This document shows positions 5,740 through 5,995 of a DNA stretch of 15,734 nt, piece by piece (position 1 is the stretch's first letter; the number at the start of each line of letters is the position of its first letter). The DNA lies in assembly GCF_003334355.1 (NCBI RefSeq), contig NZ_QOWP01000050.1; one strand, 5' to 3'. Source of the DNA: Escherichia coli (GTDB taxonomy: Bacteria; Pseudomonadota; Gammaproteobacteria; Enterobacterales; Enterobacteriaceae). The notes below the pieces were generated by a model. It searched no databases and was not told where the DNA came from. It worked only from the letters and a program-made list of their open reading frames with translations. Made by a program: the position numbers and the translations under genes.

Positions 5740-5995
5740 TACTATGCTCCCGTAAATTCCGATTGGATATCGGCTATGGATTTTCCTGGCCCGCCTTTTG
5801 CGGGCAATCATAATCCTGGTCGTTACGGGCGAGTTTTTCCATCTTTTGGATGTTTTTTCAGCGTTTTCTGTTGGCTCGATTCATCAGAAAAAATGTTAGC
5901 GCGGTCAAGTTTTCACCGCAAAGGTATTTAAAAGGTATTATTAAGTGGTATTGTCATCGCGTACCTTACATTACCTGTCATGAAGGAATTAAAAG

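Follow-up and report, generated by a model that had tools for sequence, protein, structure and literature searches.

The window, which is the whole 15,734-nucleotide stretch of Escherichia coli DNA analyzed here, covers the gat-fbaB-yegTUV-thiMD region. In this region fbaB, the class I aldolase gene of gluconeogenesis and stationary phase, is divergently oriented to yegT across an AT-rich spacer of 256 nt. To date, only transcriptional regulation of fbaB has been described (sigma-S, Cra, CRP and FNR). The genes and the elements that lie outside the fbaB leader are the following.

4687..5739, minus strand: fbaB coding sequence, 350 aa, class I fructose-bisphosphate aldolase (RefSeq annotation of the identical locus and of MG1655)
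starting at 5996, plus strand: yegT (annotated)
4586..4656, minus strand: Rfam match to naRNA4, a REP-derived nucleoid-associated RNA (62.7 bits versus a gathering threshold of 59.5)
5872..5883, minus strand: Cra (FruR) box-like TGAATCGAGCCA, with a perfect left half-site TGAATC
5920..5952, plus strand: three direct GGTATT repeats (AAAGGTATT-T-AAAAGGTATT-ATTAAGTGGTATT) that overlap the yegT promoter
6000..6022, minus strand: terminator-like hairpin with a T-run, antisense to the first yegT codons (10 pairs, 4 of them GC)
12511..12607, minus strand: TPP riboswitch upstream of thiM (71.2 bits, annotated by RefSeq as well)

The fbaB ATG at window position 5739 corresponds to 2176586 in NC_000913.2 and to 2178564 in NC_000913.3 (MG1655). 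The naRNA4 match sits between gatY and fbaB, shortly after the fbaB stop codon. At gathering thresholds it was, together with the TPP riboswitch, the only Rfam match in the whole window, both of them lying elsewhere than the leader, and a search of 5700..6000 against the covariance models of Rfam 15 gave no match even at E <= 1. The Cra-like site, centered at about -72.5 from the mapped fbaB start discussed below, is kept as TGAATCGNGCCAGC in genera that have yegT as the neighbor; the conserved GCTGAAAA A-tract that comes after it (5862..5852) could be an UP-like element. Conservation across genera also holds for the GGTATT repeats, which read TACCTTTTAAATACCTTT in A1, an alignment of fbaB upstream regions from 34 Enterobacteriaceae. 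GgaR (YegW), binding of which was shown within 190 bp upstream of yegT (PMC10819704), may have its operator in these repeats. The terminator-like hairpin at 6000..6022 is probably there by chance, as the scan returned 2 such sites versus 0.7 expected.

The subject of our analysis is a short GC-rich hairpin in the spacer.

5789..5805, minus strand: hairpin 1, GCCCGC AAAAG GCGGGC in the fbaB sense (seen in the sequence, in leader folds and by covariation)

On the plus strand this inverted repeat reads GCCCGC-CTTTT-GCGGGC and comprises 17 nt (6 + 5 + 6). The initial annotation had placed it at 5789-5806; the hairpin is present, while its end is at 5805, since base 5806 (A) is outside the stem. 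The rest of that description holds: the hairpin lies inside the fbaB/yegT control region and spans 50-66 nt upstream of the ATG, the 3' end of the stem being 50 nt from 5739. Folded in isolation it is predicted at about -11.5 kcal/mol, and it is kept in the minimum free energy folds of both 69-nt and 131-nt leaders. As a bare pattern it is not significant window-wide, because perfect 6-bp stems with at least 5 G/C pairs and a loop of 3-8 nt occur 5 times in the window versus 4.0 +/- 1.7 in dinucleotide shuffles; within the AT-rich spacer such a hairpin appears in only 1.8% of shuffles. We nevertheless confirm the hairpin as real, on the comparative and transcription start evidence rather than on the pattern as such.

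Within E. coli hairpin 1 is essentially invariant, and of 5426 complete genomes 5422 have a match to the 461-nt stretch around it. Over the 56 nt that surround the hairpin, the common polymorphism is A/C at 5783, outside the stem and after a GGA motif: the window has A, MG1655 has C, and C is also the consensus of other genera (CAGGACAATCCA). Among the 5290 records matching a 56-nt query, 791 are identical to the window (A at 5783); the one-mismatch class forms the majority of E. coli records and is assumed to carry the same A/C change, which was checked for MG1655 only.

The position of the hairpin relative to the start of transcription is central to its interpretation. The start and the elements around it are listed here.

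5805, minus strand: fbaB transcription start (G), NC_000913.2 position 2176652, leaving a 66-nt 5' UTR
5812..5806, minus strand: AT-rich discriminator TATGATT, 7 nt, between the -10-like element and G5805
5813..5819, minus strand: -10-like C-CAGGAT, a conserved motif at a position that fits the start (putative promoter element)
5836..5841, minus strand: -35-like TGGAAA, with an invariant TGG (putative promoter element)

The libraries of Kim et al. (2012; PMC3415461, Table S1) were made from mid-exponential cells by Terminator-exonuclease (TEX)-enriched 5'RACE-seq for triphosphate ends. They list a sole fbaB start for MG1655, on the minus strand with 37 reads, which comes from a single TEX-enriched library without a paired untreated control. 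The 51-nt upstream string given for this start ends in ...GGATTATGATTG, i.e. ...CCAGGATTATGATTG (PMC3415461). The mapped start, G5805, is the first base of the stem, and hairpin 1 occupies +1..+17 of the E. coli fbaB mRNA. Start mapping had been suggested in the initial annotation as a way to see whether the hairpin is in the 5' UTR, and the published start places it there, at its very beginning. Alignment A1 had indicated base 5805 before the entry for this start was found. We therefore consider it likely that the hairpin is exactly 5'-terminal in E. coli, with the reservation that the stem begins at the 5' end of the transcript in one TEX dataset and that starts at -99/-101 have been reported for Salmonella.

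The elements upstream of G5805 form a conserved promoter-like pattern. In A1 the stretch ACCAGGMTTA is invariant or nearly so across the 34 Enterobacteriaceae: within ACCAGGATTA (5820..5811) C, G and T are invariant and A, C, A, T and A nearly invariant. TGGAAA is separated from the -10-like hexamer by 17 bp, and the 17 bases between the TGG and CCAGG blocks vary in sequence while aligning gap-free across genera. The pattern is also present in genera where the neighboring gene is not yegT, and at the homologous place Erwiniaceae have TTGCMT, 17-18 bp and then CA-N-N-C-T. Of the 12 positions in the two hexamers only 7 agree with the sigma-70 consensus, and a consensus promoter scan did not call them. 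Such a weak match fits a promoter dependent on sigma-S and activators. The -10-like element has C at -13, A at hexamer position 2 (-11) and T at position 6 (-7), with C at -12 and an otherwise weak sequence. Expression of fbaB is rpoS-dependent: in stationary phase, deletion of rpoS lowers it from about 12.3 to 8.8 (log2; Cho 2014, Table S7). Northern blots show a strong fbaB signal in stationary phase, and in the study of Myers et al. (2013) fbaB, cited there as a sigma-S promoter, had no sigma-70 ChIP peak. The analysis thus pins down the likely fbaB core promoter as a weak, sigma-S-dependent one composed of TGGAAA, 17 bp and C-CAGGAT; judging by these elements, sigma-S would use this exact start.

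Several other promoter assignments were tried and rejected. A sigma-54 promoter with TGGAAAA as the -24 element would have a GG-to-GC spacing of 9-10 nt, not 11, and this interval is unconserved. The alternative -10 hexamers TATGAT (5812..5807) and GATTAT would leave just 1 and 4 nt before the mapped start, and other genera do not conserve the second base of either hexamer. The FNR site placed at -59.5 by Myers et al. was considered as an independent sign of a -101 start in E. coli and discarded, because the starts used there were taken from EcoCyc and from Kim et al.

Conservation of the transcribed leader concerns base pairing rather than sequence. Anchored on the -10-like motif, 41 of 41 distinct relatives have a hairpin at the same place, with the first paired base 6-8 nt after the last T of the hexamer in every leader. 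In a MAFFT alignment of 28 Enterobacteriaceae leaders (A3), which was fitted to no structure, RNAalifold returns exactly two helices, hairpin 1 and a second hairpin nearer to the ATG. The rest of the leader contains these elements.

5784..5786, minus strand: GGA within conserved CAGGAnAAUCCA, 3 nt 3' of hairpin 1
5759..5773, minus strand: hairpin 2, CCGAU AUCCA AUCGG (RNAalifold, covariation)
5747..5751, minus strand: Shine-Dalgarno sequence GGGAG within invariant ACGGGAG (A1 and A3)

Taken together, 90.7% of the cells in the two helices of A3 are paired versus 76.2 +/- 1.2% after shuffling (0 of 500 shuffles reach the observed value), and sliding the 3' partners by 1-3 columns leaves only 24-42% paired. 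Changes on both sides are seen in nine of the 11 pairs (45 cells). For hairpin 2 alone, all 5 pairs are changed on both sides and 92.5% of cells are paired. Helix 1 occurs in 19 stem sequence variants, with a loop that varies in both sequence and length. We are highly confident that the fbaB leader contains a conserved RNA structure. Pairing is thus kept by compensatory changes on the sense strand, and neither a start downstream of the hairpin nor a lack of conservation, which the initial annotation had named together as evidence against its proposal, was observed.

The same data bear on whether the repeat acts as DNA. One might suspect that +1..+17 of the fbaB promoter serves a dimeric transcription factor as its operator, given that the inverted repeat is perfect over 6 bp in E. 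coli and lies inside a regulated divergent control region, where FNR, CRP, Cra and GgaR bind the spacer or reportedly regulate its promoters. However, an operator calls for a conserved half-site at fixed spacing, and in hairpin 1 only complementarity is conserved, across the 19 variants, while the length of the loop, i.e. the spacer, varies. Helix 1 has 20 G.U cells versus 3 A.C cells, so that 20 cells would be G.T mismatches in a DNA palindrome, and its cells pair in 89% of cases on the fbaB sense strand versus 79% on the opposite strand. This asymmetry favors selection on the sense RNA over a DNA palindrome or an antisense transcript. In addition, fbaB is unaffected by GgaR, whose binding maps to the 190 bp next to yegT. 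An operator function is therefore extremely improbable, and of the two options offered by the initial annotation, a 5'-UTR structure or a protein-binding palindrome, the former is borne out by the mapped start and covariation and the latter is not, its half-site and loop being unconserved.

It is equally hard to credit that the repeat works as an intrinsic terminator or as an attenuator, or that it arose by chance and has no function. Its GC-rich stem does resemble that of a terminator, and window-wide such hairpins occur at the chance rate, but no U-tract follows the stem (CAGGAAAA on the minus strand, AATCATAA on the plus strand) and hairpin 1 was not called in the terminator scan of the window. 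Chance is excluded by covariation and by positional conservation in 41 of 41 relatives.

In the remaining leader, the second G of the GGA is invariant in A3, where the consensus reads CAGGAnAATCCA, and this GGA is a candidate contact for an RNA-binding protein or sRNA. The Shine-Dalgarno sequence is unpaired in the predicted folds and single-stranded in the centroid fold. A role of hairpin 1 as a translational repressor was rejected, the stem leaving the Shine-Dalgarno sequence free. We also discarded a long-range pairing of CCCGUAA (5829..5823) with the Shine-Dalgarno-proximal UUACGGG, which appears in the 131-nt fold; it is unconserved in other genera and outside the -66 transcript. The in-frame ATG at 5811, which would extend FbaB at the N-terminus by 24 codons (4687..5811, minus strand, a 374-aa ORF), is an ORF-calling artefact: it lies upstream of the mapped start, inside the -10/discriminator region, the inter-genus indels in loop length are not multiples of three, and the Shine-Dalgarno sequence and the ATG at 5739 are invariant. 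Plus-strand ORFs at 5776..5931 and 5850..5999 fall in this indel-rich non-coding spacer and were treated as spurious.

One relative departs from the common arrangement. In Enterobacter sp. ENT03 (locus L020, ~2440..2503) a deletion removes both leader hairpins, whereas TGGCAT, 17 bp, CCAGGCT and the Shine-Dalgarno sequence are kept. The hairpins are therefore dispensable in at least one lineage, which offers a natural test case for their dispensability.

It is more difficult to reconcile the E. coli start with those reported for Salmonella. Ramachandran et al. (2012) give a primary fbaB start in SL1344 with a 99-nt UTR, from only 3 and 4 reads, and Froehlich et al. (2016, Vogel lab) built their Salmonella fbaB::gfp fusion from -101; these starts are ~33-35 nt further upstream than that of E. 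coli. A Salmonella-type locus in our set (L085), identical to the published 51 nt upstream of the SL1344 start, keeps TGGCAA, 17 bp and CAGGCT together with hairpin 2 and the Shine-Dalgarno sequence, and has CCCGCA-AUC-UGCGGG in the place of hairpin 1. It also contains (1384..1400) a good sigma-S-like -10 element, GCTAAAGT, followed by TGGCA, upstream of the -99/-101 start. The E. coli counterpart (5835..5850) is CCAAAAGA-TGGAA, where CAAAAGA stands against CTAAAGT of Salmonella, both key T's of the -10 element being replaced. Comparison of GCTAAAGT with CCAAAAGA thus implies that E. coli and Salmonella may use different fbaB starts. Since the promoter-like elements are retained in the Salmonella-type locus along with the hairpin, the latter may lie within the transcript there, and its terminal position may differ among species. 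Hairpin 1 is transcribed under every published start site, and the discrepancy is flagged here for annotation databases to reconcile.

The upstream start leads to the main rival of a 5'-terminal hairpin. Transcription would begin at about -99/-101, in the TGGAAAA/TGGCAAA motif, placing the hairpin internally at about +35; the -66 end would arise where RNase E cuts the AU-rich GGAUUAUGAUU that immediately precedes the stem, and the hairpin would be a processing boundary that protects a 5'-monophosphate end. Directly adjoined by a stable helix, such an end could escape exonuclease digestion and mimic a transcription start. Consistent with this, a single-stranded, AU-rich stretch precedes the stem, long leaders still form hairpin 1 when folded, and both the 99-nt UTR of SL1344 and the fusion from -101 agree with the upstream start, which in the Salmonella-type sequence is preceded by GCTAAAGT. 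Against it, Kim et al. list no upstream fbaB start for E. coli, the key T's of the -10 are lost in this species, and the Salmonella start is covered by 3-4 reads. Moreover, the bases just upstream of TGG are unconserved between genera, while TGGAAA, 17 bp and CAGGMT are conserved. We regard processing as possible and hold it only tentatively.

On balance we lean towards hairpin 1 being an ordinary 5'-end stem-loop that would protect the fbaB mRNA from decay. Sigma-S-dependent transcription would initiate at G5805, giving a transcript whose 5' end is pppGCCCGCAAAAGGCGGGC, with zero unpaired 5' nucleotides. An end buried in a helix in this way is expected to be a poor substrate for the pyrophosphohydrolase RppH and to bind poorly to the 5'-monophosphate sensor of RNase E. 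With the first nucleotide paired, 5'-end-dependent decay might be slowed, and the steady-state level of this stationary-phase gluconeogenic mRNA raised, while the ribosome-binding site is left open. A stem and loop free in sequence but held at a fixed distance from the promoter is what a structural 5' cap role predicts. For the stabilization of fbaB mRNA itself the chances appear evenly balanced. If it occurs, any effect on half-life would come from reduced access of RppH and RNase E; the presence of a stem-loop from +1 onwards suggests that fbaB expression depends on mRNA lifetime as well.

Recognition of the leader by a regulator would be compatible with a stabilizing role, the two being non-exclusive. 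The hairpin could be part of a platform for CsrA or for an Hfq-dependent sRNA, its stem presenting the GGA, which would act together with the Shine-Dalgarno GGGAG. CsrA represses gluconeogenic functions, and a conserved GGA 3 nt 3' of the stem in CAGGAnAAUCCA together with an invariant ACGGGAG would suit it. The fbaB mRNA was recovered by Hfq co-immunoprecipitation and FbaB protein falls upon SdsR over-expression, but the fbaB::gfp fusion spanning -101..+45, hairpin included, is unresponsive to SdsR (Froehlich et al. 2016). Furthermore, the GGA is outside the hairpin loop, the loop of hairpin 1 has no conserved sequence, and CsrA-fbaB binding data were not found in the CsrA literature. We consider such a platform improbable. 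A broader version, in which the whole 66-nt leader (both hairpins, GGA in CAGGAnAAUCCA, ACGGGAG) is a conserved post-transcriptional control module through which carbon status acts on stability and translation of the gluconeogenic aldolase mRNA by way of CsrA or an Hfq-dependent sRNA, the 5' hairpin setting a basal lifetime, seems unlikely; if true, the leader would be more than a passive stabilizer.

Comparison with known systems helps to place hairpin 1. Like Rho-independent terminators it has a short GC-rich stem, with a 5-nt loop; unlike them it is followed by no 3' U-tract on either strand and stands at the start of a transcript, not at its end. With CsrA-regulated leaders such as glgC and pgaA the fbaB leader shares several GGA motifs, one overlapping the Shine-Dalgarno sequence, a conserved upstream GGA (5786..5784) and a gluconeogenic, stationary-phase function of the gene. 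In contrast to glgC and pgaA, its GGA motifs are not in hairpin loops, neither the conserved upstream one nor the invariant GGGAG, and the likeness is a candidate one.

The closest likeness is to 5'-terminal stem-loops, which stabilize the ompA and papA mRNAs. Stabilization of this type was reportedly described by Emory in 1992, Bouvet and Belasco in 1992, Arnold in 1998 and Bricker in 1999. A review (PMC3997798) lists this work of Emory, Bouvet, Belasco, Arnold and Bricker among its references. The fbaB stem is shorter (6 bp) than those of ompA and papA, and the comparison is drawn from sequence and the mapped start; with a start reported upstream in Salmonella, the terminal position is perhaps not universal. 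Like hp1 of the ompA 5' UTR and the papA stem-loop, the fbaB element is a stable hairpin in which pairing starts with the first mapped nucleotide of the transcript; its structure is conserved while stem and loop are free to vary in sequence, and an accessible ribosome-binding site lies well downstream of it. As far as we found in the literature, it is apparently undescribed for fbaB. Current concepts are unchanged by it: the fbaB hairpin would join the known class of 5' protective stem-loops alongside those of ompA and papA, as what appears to be a clean natural case of a sequence-independent 5' protective hairpin kept throughout the history of Enterobacteriaceae.
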